Assembly (NCBI GenBank): GCA_936941205.1
Contig: CAKZJF010000082.1
Span: forward strand, 2,536-66,535
Direction: 5' to 3'
Length of the DNA stretch: 64,000 bases
Source of the DNA: an uncultured Candidatus Altimarinota bacterium
GTDB lineage: Bacteria; Patescibacteriota; Gracilibacteria; BD1-5; UBA2023
Shown one piece after another: positions 27,251 to 58,694 of this stretch (position 1 is the first letter of the stretch; every line of letters begins with the position of its first letter). Under the pieces are notes generated by a model. That model had not been told where the DNA came from. It worked only from the letters and a program-made list of their open reading frames with translations, and searched no databases. The position numbers and the translations under genes are program-made.

Positions 27251-30200
27251 TTACTTTGCTGTACCATATACCCCATCATATACGGGTGGAGGATTAGATG
27301 ACGCAACTGGATTATACTCGATAATCACTGGATACTGAGCAAGATCTTCTGTTGTATTAGCAAATGGCTGTATAAGATCCATATCAGCACTTGTCACATT
27401 GCCACTCGTTTTATCAACAATTCATCCACCGGCAACAGTAGTAGTAGGTGTAATATGAGTTCCTGCAGGAACCATAATTCATGCTGTTCAACCAATTGCA
27501 CCAAGTCATGCATCTACGAGATAATAACGACGAAGGAAGTTCAGATCATATCGTTGAGCGACTTTATAGGAACATCCAGAGAGGAGAAAATATGGACACT
27601 TTGGAACTAAGAGACGAGATCCACCAATAGTATTTTCACTAATCACGGTTCCAAATATATGAAGCTGATTTTTTAGAATGGAAGCACTTGTATCAGGATC
27701 GAGAAAGTTTGTACCATCATAACTCATGATAGATTTTTCAGCAAAAATAGTTCCTACAATATTTGTAACACTCGGATCAATATAAACACTTCATCCAAAT
27801 CCAGATTCATCTTTCAATACTACAATACCGAGAACATCTTTTTCCAAATCATCATAGTACATATTTCCTTTAATATAGAGATTAACTCACTTTAGTACTA
27901 ATGTTCGTTTTCCGGAAATTCATACCGTAGAACCGGTATTTGCTGGAAATGCATAATTCATTTCAGAAGTTCCATTTCCATGAATATAGAGAACACTCTT
28001 ATTATTTGAAAGTTTTACGATATCACCAAATGCTGATCATCCAGCTGGAAATGATGTGGTATCATTTATAAGGGTTGAAGTAAGCCAGCTTGCAATGGGA
28101 GTAGTCTGGATATTTCGAATAAACTGATGCGTTCGTGCAATAATATCAGACTTACTAGTAAATTTACTCACCTGACCAATCAGGGTAAGGTCAGAAAGGA
28201 GTTGACCAGATACAAGATTGGAAGCATCTTCGGTTGTAGTACTTCCAACTATTTTCACATCTCGCTGACTTCCCATGGCATCATACGTAGTACCACTATG
28301 AAAGTTTCCACGTCCCATGATATCAGAGTTATAGAGAATATCCTTTCCATCAAGTTGATAATGAAGATGGGTGGAAAGATAGAGGTTAGAATTGAGTCCT
28401 ACGGTGTAACCAGGATTCTGAAGAAGACGAGTAAAGAGATCATATGGAGTTCCTGTAGCTGGAGGATTTACGGTAATCGCGTCTTTAATTCAAGCAAGTG
28501 AGGCAATAGGAGTATTATCAACATAAGTACGTACGGTTCCTCCTTTAAAATTAAATTGATTTACATCGGTACTTCCACTAAACTCAAGTTCGAGAAAATT
28601 CGAACTCATAGCAGTACGCGAACCAGTTCGAGCAAACAGTATATCTGATTCCTGAACTGCCCCCTCGATAAATCCACCATCTCGCAGCTCTTTTCGTATA
28701 ACAGTCGTATACATTGGAGAAAAATCAAGGTGAATACCTGGATCAACTACTTCTGGATTTAAATCATAGAGACAATCCGGATTATTTGCACTTGGTGCAT
28801 TAGCTATAAGACACTCTGATTTTACTGGAGTTGAATTTGCTTGATTATGAAAAAGACCTGCATGAGTAATTATTACTTGTGCATCACTAATATTGAACTC
28901 AGCATCCGGATCGGCTCTATAATTATGTTTGGTTGGAGTATATACTTTGAATCGAAATGGATAGCTTCCAGTTCACCAAGGTACTGATGGTTGATCTTGA
29001 AATGAACCACTTCCATGTGTCATAGTAAGAGTAGATGCAAAGTCCGGTATTCAAGAGGTTATATCGAATATATCTCTTTCGTATAATCCATTTCACTCTT
29101 GGGTGGCAAGAGGTTGTTCATTTCCAATTACATCTATAAGATCATCTGGTGTAGCAATAAATACAGAGGACTCGCCACTTCTATTATATTGATCCAAATA
29201 CATGGAATTATCATAGAGGAATTGAAATTGGAGTTTTCTATCTATAGAGGTTCGTTTGATTGGAATAATTGGATTATCATAGCCATCTTTTAGAGATATT
29301 TCTAACTCCGCGGTAGTACCATTCGCAATTTGTTGAGGATTTCATGATCACCGAATTATTCAAGAACCGTGTGTTTCAGAGGCATACATTTCCCAAAGTG
29401 GATTTGCATATACATTAAAGTAAAAATCACGGACCCCCTGCAATGCACTATTATAAATAGTTCATAGTACATAGGTTGTTGGTGTATCTGGATTACCAAC
29501 TACAGCTGGTTCTAAATCCCATCCAAGTGTTGATTGATTCCCTGGTGCACAATTCCCTGCCTCATCACATATTTGAATAATTCTCTGAACATAGACGCGC
29601 CCTTCTTTATCAGGACCTCAAAATTCTGTTCCAGTATGATAATCATTTGATACCTTACTAATATCCTTAATAACATCTAGCGTTGCATAATCATTTTCCG
29701 GAGTACTATCATCCGCAGGATCATCATCTCGAGAATTATCTTCCAATAGTAGAAATTGACTTGGTGTACTTACATCTTCAAAAACAGAACGTATCTCAAC
29801 AATAGGAGAACCACTATGTGGATCAGAGGTTATGACAAAATGCTGCACTCAGAATTCCGTAGGACTATCACTGGTTGCAAGAAAATCTTTTCCATGAGTA
29901 ACAGAGGCAAGCTCAGTGGTAGTTGGATTTGGGAGGACTGTATCAACTTTGATAATTGAAGTTCCGGTATTCCACTCAGATTGGTTAAGTGCATAATCGC
30001 GAGCCCGAGCCCGAAATTTATATGCACGGTGTGCTCAGGTAAGTATGGTGGTATCGGTATATACAAAAAGTAGGCTTTCCGCATTTTGACCATGGGTATA
30101 AGGTGATATCGTTTCGGTAAAATCAGTCATCATTCCAAATGGATTGAGAGATAATAAGATACTGGTATTTCAATCAAGTGGAGTATAATTCGGACTATTA

Positions 30201-32467
30201 TGGAAGTATGTATCATAACTTGTTGTACGCAAGTTATTTGCAACACGAAGCCAGGTTCCATTCCATGCACTAAAGCCGGGGGCATCATCTGCATATTGCA
30301 TCTCAACTTCTACTTCCTTTAAACCTGATCAACCGGTATCGGTTAAGGTAATTTCCATTGGTATTTGACCAGTTGGACTCCATATTCCATCACCAATATC
30401 ATAATCTGTATTCGTCCATCAATCATAATATACAAGAGTGGTTACAATTGGTGGGGTTGAATCCCAATAGTCACACATCATATTTCCAACCAAGTCACCA
30501 CCAGTAGTTCGAGCCTGAATATAATAATAGGTTGAAACATCTATAGCTCAAATAAGATCTGTAATGCCTAATGGAGAATATATAAAATCATACACCCCTG
30601 GAGCTACTCATGATACTCCTGATAACGGTACATTAAAAGGATTATATGAAAGTATACTTATATCATCAGTTTCTCCATCAGGATCACACCAAGCAATATC
30701 TTCTGCAACAGTTCAATTGGGAACTCTTGTATAGGTTTCTGGATGATTTCCATACCAATAATTTGGAGTTATTAAAGTAGTAGGGAGAATTCATGTTGGT
30801 GATCAAGCTGGTAAAACTGGTGCTGGAGTAGTAGATCATGTTAGCATGGTTGCACTACAATTTTTTGTTGCACTATTATGTGAACATGTCCAAGTATAAA
30901 CCTCTACTCAAGGTATAGAAGTATCAAGGGTGACACTTCCGGCAGTAGCAGATACTGGAGCACAACGTCAAGGAGTTGCCGTGGTAACAGCAGATACTTG
31001 CAATCAAGTTATTCCACAACCAGGATGTTCATAGGTTGCACTACATTCCATAGATGATCAAACAGCATTTTTGCATGACCAATTATAGATAGTTGTATAA
31101 TTATTTGGATTACTATCAGTAAAAAAACCAACCGTAAATGGTGTTGCACAAACATTTAAACTTCCAGAGTTAATCACAGCCGTCAAAGTTGTACCAGATA
31201 AGCTTCAGCAACTTGCTGGTGTGCTTCATGTACATTGAGTATTACAATATCCTGCTGTTCCATTCAAGGCGCCATCATCACAAAACTCATTAAAATTCGT
31301 AGCAGGATCAATAGTAGAACTTGATCAGGTTACAATGCCATCTCCACACCAATTTCCTCTAAAAGTATAACATGTATTTGATGATGCTCATGTATTTGCA
31401 TTAAAGGCACGGAGGGTTCAGGAAGATGCAGAATTAACATTTTCAACAAGTGCAGTATCTGTTCAGGGAAGAGAAATCTTTTGAAGTTCACGAGTATCCT
31501 TTGTATCACAAACACGATAGGAAGAATTATATCTCCAGTCAGTTCCATCATAATAGAGTCAACCAACTGCGGATGTTCCATTTCCAACTATAGCAATTAA
31601 AACAGACGGACTCATATTAGACCCACTGTATTTCTTCAGGGCTTTTGTTGTTGAATCATACTGATAAAAGAATCCAGTAAGATTATCTTTTACGACACTT
31701 GGAGTATATCCATTAATTAGCGAATATCCATTCACTGGAATGTTTGATTCTACATAATTCACAGCTCATGAACTCTTTGTGAAACAACTCCACGTAATTA
31801 AAGTGCCTGGAGTAACAAGTTCCCAAGTGATAGGAGTTCATCCGTGTGAATTACAAAAGAGTTTCCCAGCAGGAACTCATGAATATATATAGTTTCCATA
31901 TATATCTTTACTATTCAATTCATAATACATTGAACTTCTAATTCGCATCCGAGCCACTTCATTACCAACATCAGACAAGGTTAATGCTGATGGCTTTAAT
32001 CAAATTCACAAGAGTGATTGTATTTGTCCTGGATCAATGTTAAACTTTGGAATAATTCAAACATAATCACCGACATCTCCTGCAAGAAAGAAATTTGAAT
32101 AGGTTACCCATGTCATTGGAAAAGTTAACTTTGATCTTCCATATATTTCTATTAATGAACCACTTTCATCTAGTATACCTGTTGAACTTAAGGGACTTGT
32201 TAAATTATAGTCTATAGGGATAGATTTTGAACCTGTTCGAGTAACCGTTGACTGAAACATATACTCATGACCATATAATGCAGTATTATAATATCAAGGG
32301 ACTCCATATAAATTCACTGATGTTACTGTATCACATCAAGTAGGAAATGCTGGAGAAGTTCATAAATCTGTAATTGGTACAGCTGCAAGTATTATAAGTT
32401 GTGTACTATAATAGTAACAAGTTATAAAAGCTATCAGATATACAATATACCTATGAAGAATTTGCAT
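27251..32467 (-). CDS. giant secreted/surface protein (1738 aa)
   Basis: ORFs 27506-27727, 28037-28318, 28490-28714, 29618-29848, 31559-31762 and 32057-32260 are all in one frame with ATG 32467 and TAA 27251-27253. N-terminal TM/signal segment. xWxC..C modules. C-terminal module resembles the C-terminus of the 1955-6837 protein. Confidence 0.8.
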
Positions 32468-32667: not shown

Positions 32668-34020
32668 ATGCAAATATTATACTATATATCGATAGCTATA
32701 TTTATATACGGTAACTATAAAATAGTTTTATCGGACTTTAGAGAGAAAAAAATACCTAATAAATATATTGTATTCTTACTGTGTCTTCTTCCTATATACT
32801 ATTGAATACTTCAAATAATGGGGGAATCTATCTCGATTCAAGAGATCTTATTACAAACACTCATTTCAATTCTCATATCATTTTTTTTATATTATTATTG
32901 AATTTGGTCTGCAGGAGATGCGAAATATGTACTTGTACTTTCTTTATTCCTTCCAAATAATGGAATTATTCCTTTTATAGGAAATATCTGACTCATAACA
33001 CTTTTCTACTTATTTGGTTATTTTCTTTATTTTTATTTCTATCGATGCTTATTTGATTGGAAATATACCAAGGAGCTATCAAATAAGGTACTATACGGAA
33101 TAAAAGAATCCATATATTCGTACATATATATTTCAGACAATAAAAAATCACTTCTTATTCGAATTATTAAATACATACTCATCTTTATTATACTCTTTGT
33201 AAGTATACGACTAGTTCGAATGTATTTGTATGAGTATTTCTTTGTTGCACGTGATAATTATGGATACATATTCGAGTTTATTAAAAATAATCCAACTCTT
33301 ATAATTATTACCATACTAGTTACCATCTTTCTAATGAATATACTTATAAGAAAGATGGTAACTATTCTAAAAGAATATATTCATAGTAAATTCTCAAAAA
33401 ACTCTTCTCACTCATATCTCAAGGATATTATCTTCCTGTTCATCTTATATATTCCATTTTGTTCATTTATATGGTATGAATATACTCTTAATCCAAATGA
33501 ACTTACATCACATATATATACCATATTCACATTCTCACTTGCCTTCTTCTTTTTTGCAAAGGTGAGTTATTATATATACACTCTAACCTTTCAGTTATCC
33601 GAAACTGAAATTATTCCGATTAAGAAACTTTCCATCGGAGATATTGTGGATAAGAATTATCTTACAAAGTTATTTTGAGATCAAAAAGCCCTATGATACT
33701 GCCATAATATCAAAAAAGTAGATGAAAATAATGAACAAAAATGACTTCTTCTCTATCCAAGACCAAAAGAATATTTTTCAAATATACATAACCCAATTGA
33801 TGAAGAAGAATGGGCGAAGCTACAAGAAATATATAAAATCGTAAATGATTATCATAGATATATTCCTTGATATGCCTCGGTAGAAAATATCAAAATACTT
33901 CGTACATTTGCTTTCTGATTTTATATATTTCTAGGTTTTCTGATAACTTACTTTCAATGAGATATCATCGCAAGAAAGATTATAACAACATTAATTCAGT
34001 TATTTCATAACAACCTTTAA
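32668..34020 (+). CDS. A24-family prepilin peptidase-like membrane protein with long extra C-terminal domain
   Basis: 450 aa. LSDFREKKIPN (first Asp motif, CpaA/TadV-like) and WSAGDAKYVL (GxGDxKL-like second Asp motif) in a polytopic N-terminal half. ORF 33220-33678 is in frame. Stop TAA 34018-34020. Confidence 0.7.
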
Positions 34021-34955
34021 GATCATATCCTCTGAATAATTTCTAATAATTCAGTTTTTGATACCTTTTGAGGATACACATGAACAAAATCATAGAATTT
34101 CTTCTTTTCATATACTCAAGAACATATTGCATTCAGATCACACTGTAAACAAGAAACATCTTTCTCATGATAAAAATCTGTTTCACGAATTTCTTCACGA
34201 AAATCAAGAAAATGAATAATACGTTCCTCATTTTTTACAATTTTTCTCGTTTCGGTAGAACAATGTTCATATCAACGAATATAGCAGAGTGGCATTTTTT
34301 CTACACGAAAGGTTCGTCATGTGCTCGTTAAAAAATCCATGGCTCGTTTCAATGATGGTTGGAAACTATCAAAATCCGGAATGGTAGATAGTGCCGTGGA
34401 TGTTTTTCTCATCATTTCCGGATCAAGATTATTCCAGACAAAATGTTTTATCTGTGGAAAATATTTTACAAGGAACTGAACGGTTTTATCAAGATGTCCA
34501 CTATTATAGTGATTAATTACTGTATTAATCTGGACGCGTACTCATAATGAAAGAGCATTTGATATTGATCTCATCAATTTTTGATAACTCCCTGGAGTAT
34601 CAGTCAAAAAATCATGTACAGATTCAAAACATGAATAAAGAGAAAAATGTACGAGTTCCAATCATGCAGTGGAAAGCTTCTGTATATAACGAATATCAGC
34701 ACACATCATGCCATTTGAAATCATACGATTTCATAATCCAATTTTCTTAGAATATTCAATCCATTTTGGGAGATTTGGAGATAATGTTGGTTCTCACCCT
34801 GTAAATATCACACCTGAATATTGTTTTGTTTTAAAGTCATTTAATAATTCAATTCATCTTTCGAGTGAAATATTTTTCCCATTCGATGGATTTGAACAAA
34901 AATGGCATCAATTATTACAATGTCGATTTACTTGAATGTATCAAATATTTGCCAT
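34017..34955 (-). CDS. radical SAM protein, twitch/SPASM-like C-terminus (island rSAM 1)
   Basis: 312 aa. VNRHCNNGCHFC (CxxxCxxC), FTGGEPT with a TGA Gly, C-terminal CLQCDLNAICSG (Cx2Cx5CxG). Its stop overlaps the stop of the convergent A24 gene. Confidence 0.8.
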
Positions 34956-34958
34956 GTT

Positions 34959-36230
34959 TTATTGAATAGGTTGTAATATTTTAAATCCATAGGAACGAAT
35001 AAAATTGATATGTATTCACTGACAATTTTTATTATATACACATGAATCACACCTCAAAGATTTCTTTCTATAGAAATCTGAAATATACCTCTTCGTGTAG
35101 CCATCAAGAGTATATGTTTCATCATCATAATCGAGATGAGATGTGAATATTCCAGTTCCTCATAAACATTTTGGAATATTTATAAGTGGCTTTCGGAAAT
35201 TGCGGAGTTTTTCTTGGAATTCTCAAATAGTAAATCCATATTTTTCAAATACCTGACTTGGAAACTCTTCTCAATTTATAACCTCATACTCATTCAATCC
35301 ATTGATTTTTTCGATATGACTATGAGTTATAAAATTATGACAAAACTGTTTCTGAAAACAATAGTTACAAGCATCTCAGTAGCATTGCGGTTTTATTTTT
35401 CCTTTCGATTGAATAAATGGAGCAAACATTTCATAGGATTCGCCCATGACTTCGGATTTTATTTTTCGTGGATCTTGTATAAGGTCTTCATACCCCTCAA
35501 AAGCCTCGGGAGGAAAACGATTTGTCCACATATACATACCGGGAATTTTTGATAATTCCCAGGTTTTTTGAAGAATTTGAATATTGGATTGGAGATCATA
35601 AAATAATGATTCTTTATTTTCTTGAAATCATCGTCCAAATGGAATAATTTGCAAAATATCGTATTCATAGACCCCTATTTTCATAAAAAATTTCACGATC
35701 TCATCCAAATACAAGACATTGAATTTATTTACTACAATATCAATATTCACTATAATATGTGGATAATATTTTTTTATAAATATTAATGCTTTCAAGGATT
35801 TCTTAAAAGCTCAAGGAGTTGCAACCAGATAATCATGCAAGGTTGAATTATGTCCATGAAATGAAAATGTCACCTCATCCAATCATGCATCAAAAACCTT
35901 CTTACAAAAATTTTCAGAAAAAAACATATTCCCATTTGTCACCGTTTGAACTCTACTATATCCGATTTCTTTAGCATATTGGATATATCATGAAAATTTG
36001 GGATTAATACTGGCTTCCCCTCCGGAGATTATAACCCTATTATCATATCCGATTTTATATCAAGTTTTTATTTGATTTCTTATAATATCTTCCTGAGGGA
36101 AAGTCCCATTTTGGGCATCACTATCAAGACAAAATATGCACTTATTATTACAAGCAGAGGCAATACGAATCCATATGCGATTTTGTTTTGTAGTTTTTTC
36201 TTTTTCTAATAAATTTATACGATTTTTCAT
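34959..36230 (-). CDS. radical SAM protein, SPASM-like (island rSAM 2)
   Basis: 423 aa. IASACNNKCIFC, ISGGEAS, CYGDACNYCFQKQFC and CDSCVYNKNCQG. Start taken at the ATG 1 nt after the upstream stop. Stop lies 3 nt before the next ATG. Confidence 0.8.
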
Positions 36231-36231
36231 T

Positions 36232-37197
36232 CTATATTTCTCAAGTAATAGGAATAATAGCTGATTCTCAGAATTGTTCAAAATATATTTTTGGTATCCC
36301 CATACATTTCTGTTGATACACACACTGAGCACATTTTGTTGTTTTCATCATATTTTCATCTCAGACATTTACATCAACACCAATCGGTATCACCTCTCAT
36401 CTATTTATAACTAATTGAGAGAAAAAACAATAAGGTAACTGACAAAATCATCAAAAACCATAATCTATGGTAATATCATTATTAAAACTATGTGGATGTA
36501 AATTAATAAGTTGAACAATACAATCATAAGGCACAAGAAATTTCTTATGATTTGATTTATTTGGATATATAATAGAAAAAACTAAATGTATCCTTCATGT
36601 AAATGGTCAAAAAACCTTTTTTAGGAAAACTAAGTACTCTCAATATTGGTTATAATTATATTTATTTATAACCAAATTAAGTTTTACACTTCAATGTGGA
36701 AAGTTTTGATATAAGTGAATAATTCATTTTATTGCTTTACTATAATGAGTAGACTGAGTCAGCATATTGTATACTTTACATATATGTGAATGAAATGAGA
36801 CAAAGAATCGTATTTTATCTTTATATGGAAGGTATTTTTTTATAAATAATGGCGAGGCAAATAAAACAGCATTTGTCTGTACCTTAATAAAACAGCCATT
36901 ATGATATAAATAATCAATCAAATCATGAAATTGACTATATAAAGTTGGCTCTCATCAGGAAAGACAAAAAGTTATACTATACTCTTTATATTTGGAAATA
37001 GCATAGTTAATAATTTCCTTCAGAATCAGGAATTCAATCTCAGTTTTTGTAAGATTTGTACTACAAAAAAGACATCATTCATTGCAATATTTTGTTATGC
37101 GAATAATATATTCTATCTTATATCCTTGGATATTTATGTTTATATCCCCTATTGATCGATAATAATTAATTATTTCAAGTATCTTAATCTCAGTCAT
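36232..37197 (-). CDS. radical SAM protein, twitch/SPASM-like (island rSAM 3)
   Basis: 321 aa. ITKYCNEGCLFC, LSGGEPT (both Gly TGA), C-terminal CAQCVYQQKCMG. Confidence 0.8.
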
Positions 37198-37906
37198 ATA
37201 TTTGAATTAGGACCTGAATCTGTTTTATTTGTTCTTTAATAATTAGCCTATCTCAATATCCAAGTTTGTAATTCGATAATAGTTCATCGAGTGCATACTT
37301 ATATATTTCATATGTATTATATGGAAAAATATAGGATTCAAGAAAAGAATTCATATAAGCATTACTGGAATTAAGTAGAATTCTTGATAAATCCTTTTCT
37401 CTTGCTCATAATCAATAATCCAGTAAATCAAATATCCCAATCTGACCATGATTTAAGAAGAAATTACTGGGATGAATATTTCAATGAATATAGCTATCTT
37501 TATGAAGTATATTACAGAATAAAGCTAGTTTTTCTGGTTCAATCTGCAGAAATGATTCCATCTTACTATAATTAAGACGAATATTTTCAATCTCAGCATA
37601 GTAAAAACGATTATTTCATATTTTAATTTCTCACTTATAGTCATAAAGAGGAGTACAAATTCCTTTTTTTTGAAGAATATGAAAGTTCGCCTTCTCTCTC
37701 AAATGAAAATTACAAGATACTCACACATCAGACAAGTAATCGGAAGAAAAATAATATTTCATTACAACTTTTCCTCCTAATGGAATAACAATAAATCATA
37801 CATTTGCATATCGTATAGTACAATACTCTCAATATGTACGTCTAATAAATTGCTGTATATTGTTATCACTCTCAAGAATTTTTCGGATATACTGAAGGTG
37901 TATCAT
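37184..37906 (-). CDS. APH/choline-kinase-like phosphotransferase
   Basis: 240 aa. VVMKYY Lys, HGNIHPSNFF (HGDxHxxN-like) and IFDLLDYG (DFG-like). Overlaps both neighbours. An alternative ATG lies at 37939. Confidence 0.55.
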
Positions 37907-38930
37907 TTTGTAAAAAATATAGAATCTTATTAGTTGCATACTCTCTTCCAACAAACTCAATCCAATTCTTATAAAATCACAAGCAATATGTATTATATTG
38001 ACATCATGAACATTCTGGTAGCTTCTCTTTTTCTTTCCATAAAATTTTATAACTCTCTAGATTTCATATATTTATTTTTCTAGAAGATGTATCATCCTCT
38101 AATTTTCTTAATTTTATATATTCCAAATTCAAGATAGGCTCATGAATAATACAAAGTGGAGGAGATGTAAAGTGGAAGTCAGGGTAAATATTATTCTTAT
38201 AGCACAGTGCTAATACATCCTGTATACATCTTATTTGTTCAATAGAGTAATCTAATAAAATATCATCTTGATTTAAGAAAGCATATCAATGAGGCTGAAC
38301 AAATCAAAATGAAATCTTATACGTATTCCTTTCTCCATCATTTGCATCAGGTGTTATGAGTCTTACAAAATTACTTATAATAAGAAATTCAATATAATCA
38401 TATAATCCAAAAAGATTCATCTTAGTAATAACAATATTTAGATTAATACTTATAAGGGTATGAATATTATTTTCATATATATATTTTACCCAATCCGTAA
38501 ATTCTTGAATATTGGTATAACTTCATAATTTCTTATTTATAAAATCATCATGAGAATGATGTGCTAAAAATATATCATCTGCCCCAGAATTTATAAGATG
38601 AAATATGTAATCTTTTTCTTGAAAGAGCCGAATTCCATTTGTTTGTATTTGAATATTTCAAATTCCAATTTTTTTAGCAAGTTGAATATATTTTCACAAA
38701 TTTTTACTTAATGTTGGCTCTCATCATGAAAATGATAAAATCATATATTCACGTTCCTGAGCGGTATATTTCTTGACAAGTGAGAGGATTTGAAATATTA
38801 CCTGTCTTGAGGAAATATCATGCTTTCAAAAATTATTCGTCTTTGAAACATTACAAAATTTACATCTCCAATTACATTTATAGGTAACTCGGATAATCTC
38901 ATTGATGTAAATACGTTCGATATTTTGCAT
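37863..38930 (-). CDS. radical SAM protein, twitch/SPASM-like (island rSAM 4)
   Basis: 355 aa. VTYKCNWRCKFC, FSGGEPT (TGA TGA at 38721-38726), C-terminal CSGCQYNTYCLG. Confidence 0.8.
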
Positions 38931-39872
38931 TTAATTCAGTATTGGATTAATTTCATCAAGACCATACAGCCATTCATAGTGAATGAGTGGTCACCAACAT
39001 TTTCAGTAATACTTACAGTTATTACATTTATGACACCAAAACCTCTCTCGTGGAATATCCTCCTTTTTATCAAAAGAACCCCTATTTAATATATTTCAAT
39101 CATAGGTAATCTTCATTCTATTTTCATAGTCAAAGTCATCTGTGATTTGAATATATTTTTCTCTTTCAGTGGATGGAAAAATACAATACGGTATATCTGC
39201 AATTTTGAGATGAATATCCTTTTTCTTGCAGTATTCAATAATTGGTAAAATCTCCTTCATACATTCGGAATACTTTGGATTAATCCTTTCGAGTATATGC
39301 TCTTTTGAATAATAATCTCTCATAACATCTGGATATGTGATCGCAATATTTCTCACTCACTGGATTTCAAGAAATTTCACCAATTCAAAAAGAGAATTTT
39401 TATTATCTTGAGTAATTACTATATTTGCCTTCAAAAAATTTCATCTCCAATATTTCTTAATATTTTCAAAAACCCCATCCCAACGTACAAAATTATTGGT
39501 GCGAGAAATCTTCTGTTGTTCCTCTGATGAAATAGCTTCAACTGATAAAAACAACTCATCAATATATGGAAGAAACTTTTTTGCTTGGTTATCAATATGA
39601 AGAGTAGATGCATTCGTTGTTACTAGGATTGTGTAACCTAAAAGTTTTCATAATTTTAGTGCATCTAAGAATACTGGCTGAATAAATGGTTCTCCACCAA
39701 GATAGGTTACATGATTATATCATTCTCTCTTATACTTAAGAAGCTTCTTTAAAATATCCTCTTTTGTTACACGTATTTTCCAAGCTTTCTCCATATTTGG
39801 ATACTCGATACAATAAGTGCATTTTTGATTACATGTCCATCCAACGTAGATTTCAAGTCGTTTATGATTCAT
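38931..39872 (-). CDS. radical SAM protein, twitch/SPASM-like (island rSAM 5)
   Basis: 313 aa. VGWTCNQKCTYC, LGGEPF, IPYCIF and CHKCNNCKYYGKCWG. Stop TAA directly abuts the next ATG. Confidence 0.8.
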
Positions 39873-40771
39873 TATTTATGATTGAGATATACCGAAAAAT
39901 AATCCATAAGTGCATGAAGCTCCTTTTGTCCATCAACCTTCTGATATATAACTTTTTCAAAATCCTTCAGCACATCTCGAAAAATATTTAATTGTTTCTC
40001 CTGAATATCCGTAAGCAAGATCTCTTTTCCTTTTCAAAGAAAAAGAGGTCTTGAAAGTTTCTTTCAGAGGTATGTAGAAACTATATCACTATAGTACACC
40101 TTCTCATCAATATCAATAAAAAGTGATTCATTGATTAAGGATGTATTGTATCCATCATTTTTCATAAATCCATATAATATAATATCGTGTGCGTATGAGA
40201 AATCAAGTATCTTTTTCATTACCATGGCCAAATTAGATAAATCTTGCTTACTCCATGAGGCCGTAAAATACACAGGAAGAATATTAAATCATTTTATTCC
40301 CATTTCTATAAGTTTTAAAAACTGTTCATAGGCCATTCATTCTTTCCCCGGAGAAATTACAAGATTCATAAATAATCGATCGATAAGATTACAACTCTGT
40401 GCAATTGACATTACTTTCTCATAACAAAAATTATTTTCTTGATCAATACTAAAAAAAATTCGTGAAAAGTAGGTATCAAGTCATTTCCCTATTTCATGGG
40501 TCAGAAGACTGGTATTTGTTACGATTTCATATTCCCATGAATGATGAATATTTAATTTCTGTATAAAACTCACAATATTTTCCCAAACAATTAATGGTTC
40601 TCCGCCAAAAAATTTTACAGATCAAATGGATGATTTATTGTTTTCTAAAAAAATTGAAAGAGCTTCATATCACTGAAGAGGAAGAATTTTTCAATCCTTT
40701 ACAACATTACAGTAAGAGCAATTAAAATTACACGCGGTGGTGGTATGTATAATGATATTATATTTCTGCAT
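39872..40771 (-). CDS. radical SAM protein, core only (island rSAM 6)
   Basis: 299 aa. TTACNFNCSYC and FGGEPL. No C-terminal Cys cluster. Paralogous to 49507-50505. TAATG overlap with the next gene. Confidence 0.75.
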
Positions 40772-41582
40772 TTCGAATTTCACAATTATCAATTAAAAAG
40801 CAATGACTGCATCTTTTTTGTGTATAACATACATCGCCAGTTCAAAAGCGAAATATATCCTCCTCTCAAACTTGTCATAATATTCCATTATCAAAATCAT
40901 AATAGTTCTGGAACTTCCCAAAAAATTCTTTTGGAAATTTTACAAATGTGGCATGAACTCAAAATTTTTCAAGAGTACAAAATAGTTTATCAATAAATCC
41001 ACGATTCTCACTATAACTATATCCTAATATATCATGATATAGTTCATACGGTCTATCGTGTGGAAAATAATTTACAAAATCAAAATTCTTAATGCCATAC
41101 TGAGTAGTAAGAATGGTTATATCACGATAAATTGATTGTATATTTTGTTTATGAATATGAATAATACATTTTTGATGGAGTCATGATGTAGAAATAAATT
41201 TCATATTACAGAGAAGTTGAGCATATGAAATACCACCATTTACTATGGTAGTATGAATAGATTTATCAAATCTATGAAAATAATAACCAAGAGAAGTAAG
41301 TCAAGAATCTTGGAGCCGTGAAAGTAATGATTTTGAAAGTAAGAATGTATTCGTCAAAATCCCGATTGACCTCTTTCATTGAGACTTAGAAAATCAGATA
41401 ATCTCAAGCAAATTCGGATGAAGTAAAGGATTTCATCCATACAGTGTTATGTTTATATCTCTAGACGATTGTATTTGTTCGTATATTAAATCCGTATTTA
41501 AAAATGGCTCTCTTTTTCTATATGTCTGTTCTAAACAATAAAGACAATTATTATTGCATGTATAGGTAATTCGAATGTCCAT
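40758..41582 (-). CDS. radical SAM protein, twitch/SPASM-like (island rSAM 7)
   Basis: 274 aa from MDIRITYTCNNNCLYC. LYGGNPL. C-terminal CYTQKRCSHCFLIDNC. ATG lies 2 nt after the upstream stop. Confidence 0.75.
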
Positions 41583-42334: not shown

Positions 42335-43560
42335 TATCATATTCTTTTTATAAATCAAGTATTAAAATTAATTTCGATAAGATCATTATTTTCTAATCAG
42401 AAGAAGTAATCAATTCAGACTGAATCAATATATCTCATTCATAATTCTTTTGAAATAATTTTATAATGACTCGTATGAATACTATCATCTTCAACTCAGG
42501 AACAAGAAAGTAAATATTTAAATTTATAAATATATGGAATTGAAGAATTTATATCTTTATTTCAAATCAGTACAATATATTTATCAAAATGATATTTAAT
42601 ATTAAATATATCTTCTATTTTTATAGCAAATAAAGACACTACTCTATTTTCCTGAATTCAAACATTAGAAAGATAGGATTCTCAAATTTGAGTTCTTTTA
42701 CCTGAACTTATATCTACGGAAAGAAAGAAGTTAACATCATAATCTGCAATTCATTGATAATACTTATTTATATACTGACTTTGAATAGTTTCATTTTTTA
42801 GAGGCTTAAATAAATGAAATTCAAAATGAATAGAAATCTTTAAATCATTTATTAGTTTTTCAAAACGTTTTTGGTAAATATAATTTTTAAATAATAAATT
42901 TGGCAAAAGCTCTTTTGAATTTCTATATTTTTTCGTATCTAGAAAATAAGTATTAAATATATCTTTTCAAAAAAAATATATTTTCGTTCTATCCAAAATT
43001 TTTTTACTCACTCAGCAAGATATATCATCATATATAAATATAGGGGATACTAAAAAATCATTTTTTGTAAATCAAATACTATTCAAAAAATTTCCTATTA
43101 AAATAAACTTTTCGTTAATTTCATACTTTCAAATTATTTCTGAAGAAAATGATTTTGGTAAGAAATCTTTTTCCGAATGCTTCAAACATGTAAAAGAATA
43201 ATCACAAGTATAACATTCACTATGATTTATTTGTAAACTCCATGTATAAAATAAATACATTTTATTTAATAGATATTTTTCTATTAAATATCTCTCTTTT
43301 ATAATGCAATATGGAAAATTAACTAAATGAATAATAAATCAATTTTCATTTAGTCTATAATAAAGTTTTTCCAGTAGGTAAATAAAAGAGTTTCAAATAT
43401 AATCTAATATCTTTTTTTCTTGTTTTAAAGTATATATTATAATAATTTTTGTATGACTCAGCTTTTCTATTTTTTTAATATAATTAAACAGGAAATATTC
43501 AAAATCTTTTGTTGAAGAAAAAATATCGATATTTAACTTGAATATTTTTCGTTTTATCAT
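42334..43560 (-). CDS. hypothetical protein, paralogue A: rSAM-auxiliary-like Cys domain + possible ATP-grasp-like domain
   Basis: 408 aa, whole frame checked line by line. NFPYCII and ECYTCDYSFTC resemble the C-terminal domains of neighbouring rSAMs, but there is no CxxxCxxC core. Ends ..IEINFNTGFIKRIG. Confidence 0.7.
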
Positions 43561-44801
43561 ATTCGCTTAATGAATCAAGTAAAAAAATTAGCCTCAATGT
43601 TTTGGCCAGTTTCCAATCAATAAAAAATTCCTGTTCATATATGATCAATATATTGAGCACCTATTTCATTAAATATGATCTTATAATGTGCTAATTCTTC
43701 AAGTCTATTATATGAGAGAAAATATTTAAATTTATATATTTCAGGAATATATAAATTTAAATCATGTTCAAAAAATAATACTAAATATTTCTCAAAATTA
43801 CTTACAACTTTATTTATATCACTCAATGTTACAATTTCCAAAACAATTTTACAATTATTTGTATAATGATTTATATTGGATCTTCATTGTATCTCCATTC
43901 AAATATCAGTCCTTTTTTTAAAAACTAATTCTTCCATGAGATGTAATGAAATATTCTTCTTTCTTTGAAATCAATAATTAATCCCATTGTACTGTGTAAT
44001 TCCTATTTCATCTCATTCAATATTATAGGATTTATCCTTATATAGTTCCCTATCAAAATCCGTATAACTTAGGAATATAGATAATCCCAATTTTTTCAGC
44101 AATCTGTTGAATCTATTTTGCAATAAATAATTTCTAAAAAAAAGATTTGATCTTACTCATGAAACCATATTTTCTGTGTCAATAAAATAATTTTCATAGC
44201 TCACTCAATTCAGTCAATCAATAAAAAGTTCAATCTTATGCATTAAATCCGTATTCATTTCTTCAAAATCCGTATTCAATTCAAATAAGAAATCAAAATA
44301 AATATTCTTCCTTGGAATTCATATATTCTCAAAGAAAAGCAATATCATATCAATTTTATTAAGAAATTGATTTTTTTGAATGGTTAAACAATCAAAACTC
44401 TGTACAAAGTGGGAGTTATATCAAGGACAAGAAAAATAATATTTACATTTGTAACACTTATTATGGCTCTTAGGAAGAACATAAATTTTATTTAAAAACA
44501 CCTCATTTATAAAATATTTTTTTATAATATCTTCATTTCTTGTTATACAGTAAGGAATATTTAAAAATTTAATTTTAATATTATTTCTACTAATGAATTG
44601 CTCGATACGTCATAACTTAGGGATTAATATATCGATAATATATGAAAAAATATGTATATCTCTCTTAAGGGTATAAATAATAAAACCGTTTTCTTGAGTG
44701 GGATATGCTTTCTTTAAAACTCTAAAAAAAAATAATTCAAACGAGGCTATTGATTGGAAATCATCAATATTTACTCTGATGGTGTTACTTTTATTATTCA
44801 T
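43554..44801 (-). CDS. hypothetical protein, paralogue B of 42334-43560
   Basis: 415 aa. ORFs 43635-43841 and 44610-44801 are in one frame. NIPYCIT and KCYKCKYYFSCPG. Ends ..IEANFFTGFIKRIG. Confidence 0.7.
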
Positions 44802-46176
44802 TACAGATCTTATTACTAATATGAGCCAGTGGATCTAATTTATCGTATCCACCATTATATATATTTGCATCCATTCTGCTTCATCCACGACATTTTTCTT
44901 TATGTAAGCAATCACTGCACTCCTTTGGAAGAAAACCATTATTTAACATTTTTTGCACGTATTCACCACTCCAAACTTCACCAATATCATGATCAAAAAT
45001 ACTTCATAAATTTGAATCAAATGCAGACATTATCTGAATATTTCCATCGGTTGTAATGATAGTTTTAACATTATGACTTTCTGATAATTCACCATCTATC
45101 ACAGAACCTGCAACTTCCAAATTTTTCATTACACAAAAAGGGACACTATCAACAATTTTATAATTTACCCCATATTGGTGATTGAGTTTGTATAATTTAG
45201 CAAGGGCAAGAGTAATCATTTCACGACTAATTCACTTGGTTGTTCCTGTCGAGTATAATCGAAAAAAATGCCAATTTTCTAATTGAAATTTATTACAAAC
45301 ATATGCGTATATCTGGCTTAAATGTATTATATTTTTTGGTGTAAGAATCGTAAGAAAATCAAGAGTAATATTTTTAAAATTTACTATCTTTTCAAGTTGG
45401 AAAATTTTTTGATCATATTTGGTTTTGAATGTTTCCAATCCAGTAATTCACTGAATATTATAGGCACCTTGTTTATTAATCGTGTAATAGTCATCATTAT
45501 TAAATTCATGCATAGAGACCATAAGATTGACTGAAAAATTTTCATTTAATCGCTCAAGTGTTTTATCAAATAAGAGAGTTCAATTGGTATTTATGCGTAT
45601 AAATATACCCTTATCACGTATATATTCTAATAAATCAAATAAGAAATTAGCAGAAAAAGGCTCTCAACCTGTAATTATAATATCACGAGTACCTGCTATA
45701 TAAAGTTTATCTATAATATTTTTGTATTCTTGTAATCAGAGTCATTTTCGAAAATTACGATCTTTTAACGGATAGTCATAATCATTGAAACAGTAGTTAC
45801 AAAATAAATTACATTTACTCGTAATAGTTAATACAACTCCAAATGGAATTAATTTTAATTTATTCTTCTCTTGAAAAAAGTGAAAATCATGAATATCTGT
45901 TTGAGATAAAAGAGTAAATACTTCCCTTCCAATATCATCCAAAGAAGAAGTTATTATCCAGTTTTTTATAGTAAATTCAGGAAGTTCCGTGGAAAAAAAA
46001 TCTCTATGTGTAAAATATACGCTTTGATATTGAAAAGTATGAATATCTTGAAATACAACTTCTATACATCCATTTTCTTTCTCAATAATTCTAGAAATCT
46101 TATATCGAGTCAACAATATCCTATCATAAGAGATGGAAGGAAATAATACGAGCGAGTAGAAAATTTTTGTAATCAT
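44794..46176 (-). CDS. radical SAM/SPASM-like maturase-type enzyme with about 105-aa N-terminal extension
   Basis: 460 aa. ORFs 45004-45219, 45232-45438 and 45742-46176 are in one frame. TSKCNLFCNYC, ITGGEPF, PFCV.., and ECSDCLHKEKCRGGS (CX2CX5CX3 with the last Cys replaced by Ser). Confidence 0.8.
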
Positions 46177-46183: not shown

Positions 46184-48253
46184 TTATGATATTAACTGAT
46201 GTAAAATTTCATAGTACTTTATAATTATATAATTCATATTTTTAATACATTGTTGTAATTTCATATCTGAACTATTTAAATCTCAAGAGAAATTATAACT
46301 TATATTTTTATACGAAAAATATCGTCCTTCTTTTTTTTGATCGAAATATATATGTACTATATAGTTATTTCATCATAAGTATAATTTATAGGAGAAGCGA
46401 TTATGAAATGAAAATGTAAATGCTACATCTATATCTGAGAATAAAAGATGAGAAAATTGTTTCCATTTTCGCAAATACTCTACCCTCTTCTCTTGAGAAT
46501 CTATACAAATTTTCAAAAGATTCTCAGAAAAATGAAATACACATTCTTCTTGTATCTTCTTATGTTTTTTCGTAATAAAAAAATCACCAAAAATCAGAGC
46601 ATCAAGATGAGTGGAAAGAAACAAATTCATAGCCTCTTGAGGTGTTTCAACTATAGGTTCAGACTTTACATTTAATGATGTATTAATAAGAGCTGGTACT
46701 CATGTTTTCTTGTAAAATATACTTATAAGCTCATGAATTCTCGGATTCTCATTTTTATTTACAGTCTGATATCGTACAGTTCAATCAACATGAGTGACTC
46801 CCGCTAAAAAAGAAATTTTTGACGGCAGAACAACTGAAGATAAAGTCATATATGGACTTTTTATCTGAACAGAAATATATTCTTGGAAATATTCCTCAAG
46901 CATAATTGGAGCCAATGGTCTCCAATTCTCTCGACTCTTTATTGTATTTACTCATAGATTATTTTCTCGAAGCATTGGAGAGGCTAGTATACTTCTATAT
47001 CAAAGTGCTCGGGGTCAGAATTCTGAAGAACCATGAAAGCATCAAATGATTTTATTTTCAATTAGATTATTTACAACAATTTCTGGATTATAGGGTATCA
47101 CTTCTATTAAATCAGATACATTATTGATAACTTCTTGAAAAACATGAACAGAGTAATTCTTGCCAATATTTGGAAAATAATGAATCTTTCCTTTTTGAGA
47201 ATTATCTTCATTCTCTATTATATAATATAAGAAATATAATCATCAGAGAGCAATTCACTGATCTCATACCGCAGATTGAACAAAAATATTTTCAAAACCA
47301 CATTCTTGAAGTAAGATAGTATTAGCTAAAACATTCAGTCCAACTCATCATGCAATGCATATATTTTTTGATTGCGTAAGAATTTGAGCCCTATTTCAGA
47401 GGTATCGAATTGCTTTTTCAGTATGAAATTGTAAATGTGCAGCAATATCAGCAAATATTGATGCAGTAATATCATCCTCTTTTTTCTTATAGTCTCATTG
47501 TGCTATCTTATAAAGCTGTATAAGATATTCCTTCATTTCATGCAATTGAATACCTTTTTTGAAAAAATAAACATCTTTTCACAAATATGAAAACAATTCT
47601 ATATCGGAAAATCGATTCTTATCTCCATACGCAGATAGCCCCATAACACTTCAAGATTCAAGTCATATAAGATCGGAAATCATTTCATAAGTTGCCCCTA
47701 CTCCATATATTCCAATACCTTCATCCACCTCCATCCCCTCTATAAATTGTATTTTCCTGTTTTCACCATAATAAATAGATTGTGTCATGTTAATTCCATT
47801 CAATCAACCCTCACCATCATATCAACTTGAATCTAAAACTAAAATAGCAGAATCACAAAAAGAGGAAGAAAAATATGAACTCATTCCATGGAGGAGATGG
47901 TGCTCTTCGAAAAATCAATATGGCTGAAGAAAATCCGTATTATTTAAATATCTCCAGTTTTGATATACTGAATATATAAATGGATAATCAATAAAATAGT
48001 TCTCATCAATGTTAATTCCAAGTCAAATTATTGTAAAGTTCTCATAATTTCAAATTATGGAAAATAAATAATCTAATCATCTATAAAAATATTGCTTCTT
48101 TATAAATTCATTTGATTCTTCGGGAATTATACAATGTTTGAGTCGTGCAAGTCTTTCTAATTCAATCCCATACAGCTTTCATTGAAAGAACATTACAATA
48201 GAAGGATCATGTTCAACATTGGCAAGACAGATGTATATTTTTTCTCTTTCCAT
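46184..48253 (-). CDS. carbamoyltransferase (NodU/CmcH/TobZ family) with C-terminal extension
   Basis: 689 aa. GLSAYGD, HGSSEFGPRALGYRSILA, RENWRPLAP and NTSLNVKSEPIV motifs (frames spot-checked). ORF 46373-46630 is in frame. Confidence 0.8.
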
Positions 48254-48254
48254 T

Positions 48255-49526
48255 CTATATTAAATTCTTAATAATATGTGCTATTTTTGATGTCTCTCAG
48301 ATTAACGCATTTCGAATATTTTCAGAATGGATATCCTTTCCGAGATCAATCTCCATACCTTCCACAATATGATTCACCAATGTATGGAGAAAATTATACG
48401 ACAAAAGTGGGAGAGATAAGCTTTTGGGTGTGTATGCCCAACTCTTCAGTAGTATAGTAATATTCTTTTGAATACAAGGATTCTTACAATAAGCAATATC
48501 AATACTTATAAGAAACAAAAGAGTGTAAATAAATGTTACAATAAGTGGAGCAGTATTTATTTTATTAAAATCTACTATATATACCTTTGAATCTTTTCAT
48601 AAAAAATGACATATGTCCAAATTAAAATATGTATATGTATGCGTAAGTATTGGATTATTGAATAAATTTTCCACATCTAGAATAGAATCATAATCTCATG
48701 GCATCATTCATAATAATTGATTTATATCATCAATAGTACATGATCGTTGTATAGAAAAAATTGTTTGTAACTTAAAAATTTCAAGTAGAAATTCTTGCTT
48801 ATTTCCATAAAGATATTTGAGTGTTACTGGCTTTGCATCTAAAAAACTAAAGCCAGAGAAATAGTATGGCAAGCCATTGAAGTTTTTCTGAATAATATAG
48901 CATTCTTGTGGTATATTCATGTGTGCCAATTGAAATATACTATATCAATTCATAACATTCACTACATCTGAAAAACGATGAAAACACCCTTTAATAATGT
49001 ATCGTTTCATTTTATATACCCCAATATAATCATTATATAAAAACTTAAACTCTGAATTTGAATCAAATACCCTATAAAGACATTCTGTCAATTGCGTAAA
49101 TCCTTCTTCTCATAAATAAAAGAAGTGCTGTCTTAACTCGCACTCGTAAAAATGCAATATTTTATTTTTCTTTGTAAAATATATACTATTTTCGATTCTC
49201 AACATATCTTCCTGGATTTTTTGCTCTATTCAATTCGGTACATACTGTAAGATATTCATACTAGCAATAGAAATTCATCTTCCAATAAAAAAATTCCTGA
49301 TTACATTCGTACAGATTTCCAAAAGATTCTTATGAATTAATGTATTATATATTAGTAGTAATTCTGTATCTTTTATTTCAAAAATAAGAAGTCATGTATT
49401 GTCTTTTTTTAGAAAAATACAATTGTATGCAAAAAAAATATTTATATTTAAAACTCCGAGTTTCTCATACAATATATAGGAAAGCTCAGAACTCCAGAAT
49501 GTCTCATTATTTAGAAATTGTATCAT
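48255..49526 (-). CDS. hypothetical protein (423 aa), possibly kinase-fold
   Basis: ORFs 48297-48518 and 48708-48929 are in one frame with ATG 49526 and TAG 48255-48257. The weak VYIVDFNK segment is the only hint of function. Confidence 0.6.
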
Positions 49527-50505: not shown

Positions 50506-50531
50506 ACACTTCTATACGTTAATATACAAAA

Positions 50532-52698: not shown

Positions 52699-52701
52699 TA
52701 C

Positions 52702-52732
52702 ATTCTTCTCTGAAACTTTTTCAGAGAAGAAT
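52702..52732 (-). promoter_or_regulatory. perfect 14-bp hairpin 3 nt upstream of the HemN-like ATG
   Basis: attcttctctgaaa (52702-52715) pairs with tttcagagaagaat (52719-52732) across a 3-nt loop. No T-tract follows. Confidence 0.5.
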
Positions 52733-52833
52733 ACATTCATAGGATAACGAAAGGCAAAACCATCCTCTTTAAAAAAGAGAATAAGAAATAGTATTTTCTC
52801 AATTTCTTCAAATAATTTCTTCATAAATATATA

Positions 52834-53834: not shown

Positions 53835-53909
53835 GGTGCCATGGCAGAGTGGTTATGCGGGAGTTTGCAAAGCTCCATACATCGGTTCGATTCCGTTTCG
53901 GCACCTCCA
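53835..53909 (+). tRNA. tRNA-Cys (anticodon GCA)
   Basis: Closely parallels E. coli tRNA-Cys. D loop agtggtta, anticodon stem ggagt/gctcc with loop ttGCAaa, T loop ttcgatt, discriminator T plus CCA. One irregular position at the T-stem/acceptor junction. Confidence 0.8.
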
Positions 53910-56127: not shown

Positions 56128-56136
56128 AGAAAATAA

Positions 56137-58684: not shown

Positions 58685-58694
58685 ATAGAAGACA

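Follow-up and report, generated by a model that had tools for sequence, protein, structure and literature searches.

The window analysed here, a stretch of 64,000 nucleotides (64 kb) from contig CAKZJF010000082.1 of an uncultured Candidatus Altimarinota bacterium (Gracilibacteria), carries on its minus strand, at positions 34017-41582, a compact array of eight genes. Read with genetic code 25, in which TGA encodes glycine, they specify seven radical S-adenosylmethionine (rSAM) proteins, designated R1 to R7, and one kinase-like protein, K, whereas genes on the flanks are designated G0 and G9 onwards and are listed further below.

34017-34955, minus strand: R1, radical SAM protein of 312 amino acids (aa); Pfam Radical_SAM 76 bits; CX3CX2C core, then PLC(224) ... 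C269x2C272x5C278
34959-36230, minus strand: R2, radical SAM protein, 423 aa; two four-cysteine sets, C283x4C288x2C291x5C297 and PKC355 ... C394x2C397x5C403
36232-37197, minus strand: R3, radical SAM protein, 321 aa; LPYC257 ... C289x2C292x5C298; located in a variable slot between R4 and R2
37184-37906, minus strand: K, protein-kinase-like/APH-like protein, 240 aa; Pfam APH 21.9 bits, gathering score 23.2; variable-slot gene
37863-38930, minus strand: R4, radical SAM protein, 355 aa; C243, PPLC260 ... C307x2C310x5C316
38931-39872, minus strand: R5, radical SAM protein, 313 aa; IPYC230 ... C283x2C286x5C292-W-G
39872-40771, minus strand: R6, radical SAM protein, 299 aa; core triad only, no auxiliary cysteines; G15/HxsB/PapB-like N-terminal half
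40758-41582, minus strand: R7, radical SAM protein, 274 aa; variant module C252x5C258x2C261x5C267

All seven R proteins scored above the gathering score of Pfam Radical_SAM (PF04055; 31.5-76 bits vs. 29.5) and thus belong to the superfamily, which confirms the seven consecutive rSAM genes that an initial annotation, made from the sequence letters, had recognized here. The junctions, read from the sequence, were also as it had described them: R5 and R4 abut in TAAATG (38931/38930), R6 and R5 share TAATG at 39872, and spacers of 1, 2 and 3 nt separate R3 from R2, G9 from R7, and R2 from R1, respectively. R7 overlaps R6 by 14 nt, and the kinase gene overlaps both of its rSAM neighbours, by 14 nt (R3) and 44 nt (R4). 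All seven R proteins contain the CNxxCx(F/Y)C triad, which is kept in all of their orthologues; in R5, the conserved motif is CNNCKYYGKC. R6 indeed has the core alone. The common layout proposed for the other six held for the core and the C-terminal cysteine motifs but not throughout, as the GGE motif deviates in R1 (TGGEP), R2 (SGGEA) and R7 (YGGNP), R7 lacks the P-x-C segment and has its fourth cysteine 5 residues ahead of CX2CX5C, and R2 has two cysteine sets. The assignment of K as an APH-like kinase is weak: its score lies below the gathering score, and its catalytic Asp, that of the HxD loop, is not conserved because the loop reads HGN in the window (HGNIHPSN) and HGS (HGSIHTSD) in the 42 % identical orthologue that adjoins the nitrogenase-like gene NflH in a related contig, L008. 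The Asp of the DYG/DL motif is present, and the catalytic loop weakly matches those of CK1 and VRK. Judged by these residues, K may be an atypical kinase or a pseudokinase.

Translation of the array region with table 11 yielded minus-strand fragments of 50-90 aa and nothing longer, one of which stopped at '...ITLYG', at the point where the rSAM GGEP motif would be expected next. Reading TGA as a sense codon increased the coding capacity of the window from 3.9k to 30k residues (open reading frames, ORFs, of at least 100 aa), and in-frame TGAs coincided with invariant glycines of the LSggEP and Rossmann GxGxxG motifs. When TGA positions of R1 and R2 were compared with standard-code orthologues, glycine was found at 36 of 67 aligned residues and tryptophan at 0, and all invariant columns were glycine. 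As these positions align to glycine and never to tryptophan, the window uses code 25. This code and the best hits, to 'Candidatus Gracilibacteria' metagenome-assembled genomes, jointly assign it to the Gracilibacteria/Absconditabacteria group of candidate-phyla-radiation bacteria. Under table 11, all window genes (e.g., 34017-63744) are broken up, and tryptophan is wrongly placed at TGA positions in many database orthologues; the standard genetic code, therefore, hides the whole array, which is a pitfall for annotation. The GC content changes at about 32 kb, from ~0.36 at 1-32 kb to ~0.27 at 32-64 kb, whereas that of third codon positions (GC3) is uniform over the window (0.17-0.29), so the step is an effect of amino-acid composition and not of foreign origin. 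A horizontal-transfer island, considered on account of this step, was ruled out by the uniform GC3 and by the share of glycine codons written TGA in the array genes (30-89 %); for the same reasons, the array is native to the recoded lineage and not a recent import. The seven rSAM genes are the 3' part of a co-directional run of ~20 genes, in a 30-kb region with 15 radical-SAM genes. G12 is a further rSAM member of this run, G10 and G11 share the cysteine module described next, and R3 and K fill its variable slot.

Alignments with orthologues showed that R1, R3, R4, R5 and G12 combine the CX3CX2C triad with a cysteine in P-[YLF]-C and a terminal CX2CX5C. The corresponding pattern is CX5CX2CX5C in R7, and CX4CX2CX5C plus PKC ... 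CX2CX5C in R2. In the same alignments, every auxiliary cysteine was kept in 100 % of orthologues, including all those of R1, the most widely conserved array member, in 5/5 orthologues, and the 12 cysteines of R2 in 7/7. In profile-profile comparisons (hhalign), the cysteines of the modules aligned Cys-to-Cys with probabilities of 93-99.5 %, and the R7 module aligned to the first module of R2 with all four cysteines matched (99.3 %). Since the cysteines align in this way, the C-terminal motifs are one common domain; the six proteins that carry it are homologous over their full length, as the initial annotation had implied. The four-cysteine module probably binds one auxiliary [4Fe-4S] cluster, or two in R2, which would then probably hold three Fe-S clusters.

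The initial annotation had called these proteins twitch/SPASM-like, and this label was found to fit their topology but not the families defined by hidden Markov models (HMMs). Pfam SPASM (PF13186) and TIGR04085 did not match R1-R5 or R7 even at E<=10 on isolated C-terminal segments, which places these proteins outside the SPASM family. The SPASM pattern has seven cysteines for two auxiliary clusters, and the R1-R5/R7 module four conserved ones, with two such sets in R2; G12 alone came near the SPASM thresholds (18.2 vs. 21.5 and 24.1 vs. 27). Similarly, N_Twi_rSAM (NF033640) did not match isolated C-terminal segments of R1-R7 and reached 24-35 bits on the R proteins against a cut-off of 170, although the four invariant cysteines and a hairpin-bearing C-terminal extension would fit a truncated SPASM-like domain that binds one auxiliary [4Fe-4S] cluster. 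The top curated (NCBIfam) families for full-length R1-R5 and R7 were HxsC (TIGR03977) and HxsC4 (NF038332), of the His-x-Ser (Hxs) systems considered below. The best scores stayed below the membership cut-offs: 94.7 (R1), 72.5 (R2) and 60.9 (R3) against 268 for HxsC, and 121 (R2), 73 (R5) and 73 (R1) against 500 for HxsC4. The only family match at the C-terminus linked the terminal CX2CX5C region with the final ~40 positions of HxsC4. An AlphaFold2 model was made of P0002, a correctly translated, 77 % identical orthologue of R5 (pLDDT 89, pTM 0.88); it places a helix and a beta-hairpin between Cys230 and CX2CX5C, and Foldseek related it to SuiB, BlsE, PqqE, viperin, GDGT-MAS, DesII, anSME and MoaA (TM 0.5-0.62, 12-20 % identity). 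The module, as modelled, thus appears SPASM/twitch-like in topology while lying outside those HMM-defined families. Taken together, R1-R5, R7 and G12 are one divergent HxsC-like subfamily, and R6 belongs to a core-only HxsB/PapB-like lineage. A search for membership in PADLOC defence systems gave matches to pVip only, generic to the rSAM core, and so no such membership.

The array was also found in relatives, where the initial annotation had suggested looking for it. Synteny was compared over seven other Gracilibacteria contigs; the genome-contig scan, the back-translated patterns of which contained glycine, yielded five loci. The order in these contigs is collinear, G12-R7-R6-R5-R4-[slot]-R2-R1, and the A24-like gene G0 comes next. 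Gracilibacteria orthologues are 47-78 % identical, as compared with 22-33 % for the second-best, paralogous match (R4, 52-59 % in seven loci; G12, 60-68 % in all loci), and R5 has orthologues in more than 100 database clusters at 49-77 %. The variable slot holds R3 and K in the window, R3 and an unrelated gene in L001, NflD-NflK-NflH-like genes with various extras in L004, L007 and L008, and nothing in L009, the array of which consists of the seven rSAM genes only; an orthologue of R3 was found in L001 alone (46 %) among the Gracilibacteria loci compared. Ca. Absconditicoccus praedator (L012) has orthologues of R2 (39 %), R4 (48 %), R1 (43 %) and R5 (30 %) that adjoin NflHDK. Moreover, R1 had reciprocal best hits in 5/5 external arrays (34-43 %) and R2 in 4/5 (27-41 %): both in Desulfobacter, Omnitrophota, Woesearchaeota and Nanoarchaeota, and R1 also in Myxococcota.

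These data bear directly on the origin of the array, which the initial annotation had explained by local gene amplification and subsequent divergence. In this model, one twitch/SPASM rSAM gene would recently have been multiplied in tandem within this genome. In agreement with that, six of the genes lie side by side in one direction with tight packing, and their homology extends over the full length. However, array paralogues within the window are only 21-30 % identical to one another, while their 1:1 orthologues, in the same order in Gracilibacteria (47-78 %), in Absconditicoccus (30-48 %) and, in the case of R1 and R2, in archaea and further phyla, are closer than any neighbour; R6, additionally, is of another lineage, its nearest relative being G15 (30 %, 1e-21), 9 kb away. 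A bootstrapped neighbour-joining tree of 65 sequences and 300 columns agreed with the all-vs-all comparison that the seven are not each other's closest relatives: every orthologue group was monophyletic with 87-100 % bootstrap, the A. praedator genes fell within the R1, R2, R4 and R5 groups (100 %), and R6 joined the G15 type (99 %). The deep branching of the R-types was not resolved in this tree. As each gene has closer 1:1 orthologues elsewhere than its neighbours, local amplification is not supported, being refuted on the terms that the initial annotation itself had set, and we consider it extremely improbable; the array is, by these comparisons, an old set of distinct orthologue groups inherited jointly, without recent duplicates.

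In standard-code genomes, R1/R2 orthologues are associated with Hxs genes. Reference families were NCBIfam TIGR03976-03978, NF038313 and NF038332. The Desulfobacter locus starts with a 105-aa ORF that ends in twelve His-x-Ser repeats and passes the HxsA4 model (83 bits, cut-off 55), followed by a near-threshold HxsD (46.6 vs. 50, with a Pfam HxsD match), a bona fide HxsB (511 bits, cut-off 370) and at least 10 rSAM genes, which include reciprocal best hits of R2 (41 %), R1 (42 %) and, for a MiaB-like domain, G21. Likewise, a Woesearchaeota contig encodes two secreted ~130-aa proteins that end in HNSHSSHSSHGSHGSHSS and have a leader like that of HxsA3 (46.7 bits, cut-off 65). A metagenome scan found at least 459 R1-type stretches, and a census of the 41 R1-containing loci of at least 10 kb gave the following counts.

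Three or more R-type domains: 33/41 loci
A24-like membrane protein: 29/41 loci
HxsB-like gene: 16/41 loci
HxsD-like gene: 10/41 loci
NflH-like gene: 9/41 loci
Long perfect (H-G/S-S)n ORF: 8/41 loci

The recurrent order in standard-code loci is HxsD-HxsB-HxsA- ... -R2-R1-A24, in which HxsA bears (His-Gly/Ser-Ser)n repeats, and locus L042 has this order plus NflH. In 38 of the 54 loci that have enough sequence, R1 is followed downstream on its own strand by an A24-like gene, at a distance of at most 1.5 kb.

More than 100 Gracilibacteria clusters contain the paralogue set, which is also present in the cultured predator Ca. Absconditicoccus praedator, DPANN archaea and several further phyla. When the R5 orthologue was the query of an exhaustive search, 237 representatives were returned at E<=1e-10, many of which are 600-1400-aa proteins with 2-4 matched stretches, and the source names of relatives include Parcubacteria, Buchananbacteria, Nanoarchaeota and Woesearchaeota. 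HMMs of the window orthologue groups identified natural fusions R2+R5, R6+R5, R5+G12, R2+R1+R2 and R1+R2, some of them in Nanoarchaeota and Woesearchaeota. The Woesearchaeota (L013) and Nanoarchaeota (L014) contigs are truly archaeal, the array of the former neighbouring PolD, Cdc6 and eIF-2beta. About 9-12 rSAM domains of the CX3CX2C + CX2CX5C type make up the array of each contig, among them strong R1 types (202-242 bits) and R2 types (223-245 bits), with several domains fused into proteins of 600-1160 aa. One archaeal fusion has an internal region with a faint (E 0.12) GT-B/epimerase-type Pfam signal, and a PMT_2 glycosyltransferase is encoded inside the L014 array. A search with the Nanoarchaeota R1-type protein returned 823 clusters, with Omnitrophota, Desulfobacter, Moranbacteria, Myxococcota and Verrucomicrobia among the named sources.

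The other features of the window are as follows.

32668-34020, plus strand: G0, A24 (prepilin-peptidase)-like polytopic membrane protein, 450 aa; Pfam Peptidase_A24 33 bits, hhalign 96 % over 92 columns; syntenic in L001, L002 and L009
41585-42340, minus strand: G9, stand-alone PPDK_N (ATP-grasp-type phosphotransferase) domain protein; Pfam PPDK_N 73.8 bits; orthologues 61-62 % in L001 and L007
42334-43560, minus strand: G10, N-terminal PYC ... CX2CX5C module, no rSAM core
43554-44801, minus strand: G11, N-terminal PYC ... CX2CX5C module, no rSAM core; paralogue of G10, 32 % identical
44794-46176, minus strand: G12, radical SAM protein, 460 aa; VPFC348 ... C420x2C423x5C429; 115-aa N-terminal extension; first gene of the conserved core
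46184-53715, minus strand: G13-G18, same co-directional run; G13 carbamoyltransferase (TobZ/NodU-type), G14 and G16 with no assigned family, G15 R6-like rSAM, G17 HemN-like rSAM, G18 tetratricopeptide repeat lipoprotein
49507-50505, minus strand: G15, R6-like rSAM, resembles HxsB
53835-53909, plus strand (opposite to the rSAM array): tRNA-Cys(GCA) gene between G18 and G19
53917-61325, mixed strands: G19-G24, beyond the tRNA-Cys gene; G19 HxsB/PapB-like, G20 U32-like Fe-S protein, G21-G24 MiaB/RimO-like rSAMs
55144-56127, minus strand: G20, weak U32-family match; conserved cysteines including a terminal CX3CX2CX2C; orthologue triplicated in L008
56137-61325, mixed strands: four MiaB/RimO-like rSAM paralogues, G21, G23 and G24 (minus) and G22 (plus)
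61335-63744, minus strand: short-chain dehydrogenase/reductase (SDR), PIG-L deacetylase and PseB-like UDP-GlcNAc 4,6-dehydratase, at the upstream edge of the window, which ends at 64000
1955-6847, 7070-10894 and 27251-32467, minus strand: three giant predicted proteins of 1630, 1274 and 1738 aa
18267-18350, plus strand: tRNA-Leu(CAA) gene

G0 and R1 converge, with their stop codons overlapping by 4 nt (TTAA), as they also do in L001 and L009. The 1738-aa protein is homologous to secreted proteins of 800-890 aa downstream of G0 in the same two contigs, so the neighbourhood R1-G0-surface protein is syntenic. G0 is likely to be a component of the system. In L002, at 13363-15762, R2 and R1 are separated by an insertion that encodes a 799-aa protein, which has two repeated domains and an N-terminus of prepilin type (..AFTLVELIVV..). 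A search of the neighbours for prepilin motifs gave this one inserted pilin-like gene and nothing general. The conserved C-terminal domain of G10 and G11 always terminates in G(F/I)IK(R/K)IG (GFIKRIG in the window); the two proteins had no Pfam or NCBIfam match and no family in any library scanned, and all four of their cysteines aligned with those of R5 (hhalign 78 %, E 1.8e-5). The tRNA-Cys gene divides the array into at least two transcription units. U32 proteins, which G20 weakly resembles, include O2-independent hydroxylases. G22-G24 are mutually 42-47 % identical, and inspection by eye suggested that the N-terminal UPF0004-like domains of the MiaB/RimO-like rSAMs of the window lack the usual three-cysteine cluster motif.

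The reading that best accommodates these data is that the array is an expanded, HxsA-less Hxs-type system in a recoded lineage, which overlaps the rSAM loci associated with NflHDK. We hold with moderate confidence that it is a version, in a recoded candidate phyla radiation (CPR) bacterium, of an expanded Hxs-type maturation system that would modify one substrate stepwise. Each rSAM enzyme would cleave SAM reductively, and the resulting 5'-deoxyadenosyl radical would remove a hydrogen from the common substrate, most likely a peptide or protein of ribosomal origin, with the auxiliary cluster serving in electron movement or substrate anchoring. The paralogues, probably joined in a physical complex, would one after another introduce modifications that differ or are site-specific, after which G0 would process the product at the membrane, and kinase-like proteins, a carbamoyltransferase, a U32-like protein and, elsewhere, NflHDK would provide lineage-specific tailoring. 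Stepwise modification of one substrate, already proposed in the initial annotation, is made plausible by the conserved gene order, the natural fusions of different R-types and the Hxs association, though the substrate itself is one that we infer. In the Gracilibacteria, this substrate may be encoded elsewhere, be of a different form or be other than a peptide.

A number of observations weigh against such an Hxs-type system. HxsA, HxsD and a bona fide HxsB were found neither in the window nor in any of the eight CPR loci; none of the scanned array proteins (R1-R7, K, G9-G27 and G0) matched HxsD, and the array has no bona fide HxsB, the best candidate, G19, reaching 67.6 bits against a cut-off of 370. 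The R proteins themselves score 25-121 bits, far under the HxsC and HxsC4 cut-offs of 268 and 500. No His-x-Ser repeat ORF was present in the 64-kb window or in eight CPR loci, where the search for a precursor also revealed no conserved small ORF, short-period or period-3 repeat, or His-rich tail, and such repeats occurred in 0/11 metagenomic loci flagged as TGA-recoded as compared with 8/30 standard-code loci. The N-terminal extension of G12 was negative in an RRE/PqqD search, and auxiliary-cluster binding is deduced solely from the conservation of cysteines. Finally, the accessory genes, namely those for the carbamoyltransferase, the two kinase-like proteins, the U32-like and HemN-like proteins and PseB/PIG-L/SDR, together with the glycosyltransferases and NflHDK of relatives, would suit a small-molecule or sugar substrate better.

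The alternatives are best considered against this evidence. If the rSAM suite, in relatives together with a group VI nitrogenase-like reductase, built or reduced a tetrapyrrole-like or other non-peptide cofactor, the array of the window would be the version without nitrogenase-like genes of the pathway proposed for Elusimicrobia. Such a role was predicted for NifH-group-VI/rSAM loci by Meheust et al. and is repeated as the only proposal in a 2026 review, and it would fit the presence of NflD-K-H in the slot of orthologous arrays and the lack of a precursor peptide in the CPR loci. The HemN-like G17 and the NirJ/AhbD types that best match G12 point the same way, but these similarities are generic and far under the cut-off, and no tetrapyrrole biosynthesis genes were seen in the window. 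Moreover, R1/R2 orthologues sit within bona fide HxsA/HxsB/HxsD peptide systems, the NflH of L042 shares its cluster with a His-x-Ser repeat gene, and R1-R7 orthologues are absent from the one Elusimicrobiota locus examined. We regard this cofactor pathway as unlikely.

Tailoring of a carbohydrate, nucleotide sugar or glycoconjugate, in which twitch-like rSAMs would act on a sugar scaffold (cf. BtrN, DesII and BlsE) with kinases, carbamoyltransferase, deacetylase and dehydratase as partners, appears to us less likely still. It draws on the TobZ/NodU-type G13, the APH-like K, the PPDK_N protein G9 and the PIG-L/SDR/PseB-like genes at 61335-63744, as well as on glycosyltransferase-type genes in relatives (in L014, PMT_2; in the slot of L004, a weak GT1; and adjoining the L002 array, a large GT2/GT1 protein). 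None of the accessory genes, however, belongs to the conserved core, L009 having only the seven rSAM genes, and the sugar genes of the window may be a separate unit, as a strand switch and a tRNA gene set them apart. The top structural matches include BlsE and DesII, but the peptide-modifying SuiB, PqqE and anSME match equally well, and the linkage of R1/R2 to Hxs genes points to a peptide.

The expanded Hxs-type system, as preferred here, also touches on the group VI nitrogenase paralogues, which in Elusimicrobia are accompanied by as many as 13 rSAM genes and for which tetrapyrrole reduction was guessed (Meheust et al. 2020 ISME J; bioRxiv 10.1101/765248). Similar loci were noted in two Gracilibacteria and in Myxococcales (bioRxiv 10.1101/765248), and a 2026 review lists no characterised member of group VI. 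In the literature on Gracilibacteria, Absconditabacteria, Vampirococcus and DPANN, the arrays are not described, and the group VI nitrogenase report is the sole account that touches them. The proteins of the Gracilibacteria slot are identical to those of one Elusimicrobiota locus at 47-49 % (NflH), 27-33 % (NflK) and about 19 % (NflD); the NflH label in L004, L007, L008 and L012 denotes this homology, and these proteins are putative members of group VI. It is conceivable, although we advance it as a tentative and rather speculative extension, that rSAM suites with group VI nitrogenase-like reductases are expanded Hxs-type maturases, the product of which, like the substrate of NflHDK, derives from a ribosomal His-x-Ser repeat peptide and not from a tetrapyrrole. 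If so, this product could be a peptide-derived cofactor, metal binder or envelope effector, and its machinery, composed of many distinct and often fused HxsC-like paralogues and an A24-type membrane peptidase, would be common to ultrasmall CPR bacteria, to DPANN archaea and to several anaerobes of free-living habit, with the precursor relocated in the genome or altered in form in TGA-recoded lineages. The present comparisons bring together three literatures, those on Hxs repeat-peptide systems, for which an antiphage role was recently shown, on group VI nitrogenase-like enzymes and on the multi-rSAM arrays of ultrasmall symbionts. About 3 % of a reduced genome of roughly the 1-Mb class is spent on these up to 15 radical-SAM enzymes. 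Relatives that lie beside His-x-Ser repeat peptides make the pathway testable; we propose His-x-Ser repeat proteins as the substrate class, and Desulfobacter and A. praedator as tractable source organisms.

Compared with known systems, the R proteins share with the SPASM/twitch enzymes (anSME, SuiB, PqqE, BtrN, BlsE and MoaA) a partial TIM-barrel core followed by a Cys-rich C-terminal extension with CX2CX5C. Unlike them, they lack the CX9-15GX4C element and the trailing X3C or final cysteine and have four auxiliary cysteines, and the R5 type is 12-20 % identical to solved structures, with TM of about 0.5-0.6. The R ligand set, one cysteine before the hairpin plus CX2CX5C, is presumably also unlike the canonical twitch and SPASM AuxII sites of anSME and BtrN. 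The NflHDK/rSAM loci resemble the arrays in that L004, L007, L008 and the A. praedator locus L012 hold NflD-K-H inside the array. No NifH-, NifD- or NifK-like ORF was found anywhere in the 64-kb window, which is thus not itself such a locus; the single Elusimicrobiota locus examined has two rSAMs that are not orthologues of R1-R7, and the published tetrapyrrole guess differs from the peptide link found here.

The closest comparison is with the Hxs system. In the antiphage HXS system (Nat Commun 2026, PMC13128918), HxsA is reported to be matured by HxsB and HxsC: it is modified at a specific site, processed at its N-terminus and exported. Four genes, one of them for HxsC, make up the canonical system, whereas 7-15 rSAM genes are present here; the array has extra kinase-like, carbamoyltransferase and U32-like genes, its relatives have nitrogenase-like genes, and an A24-like membrane peptidase is a regular partner of R arrays. 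On the other hand, R1-R5 and R7 score higher with HxsC and HxsC4 than with any other curated family, and R6, G15 and G19 resemble HxsB. HxsC, moreover, is a two-cluster rSAM enzyme that acts on a processed and exported protein (PMC13128918), and the genes of R1/R2 orthologues immediately follow bona fide HxsD-HxsB-HxsA genes in Desulfobacter and many metagenomic loci.

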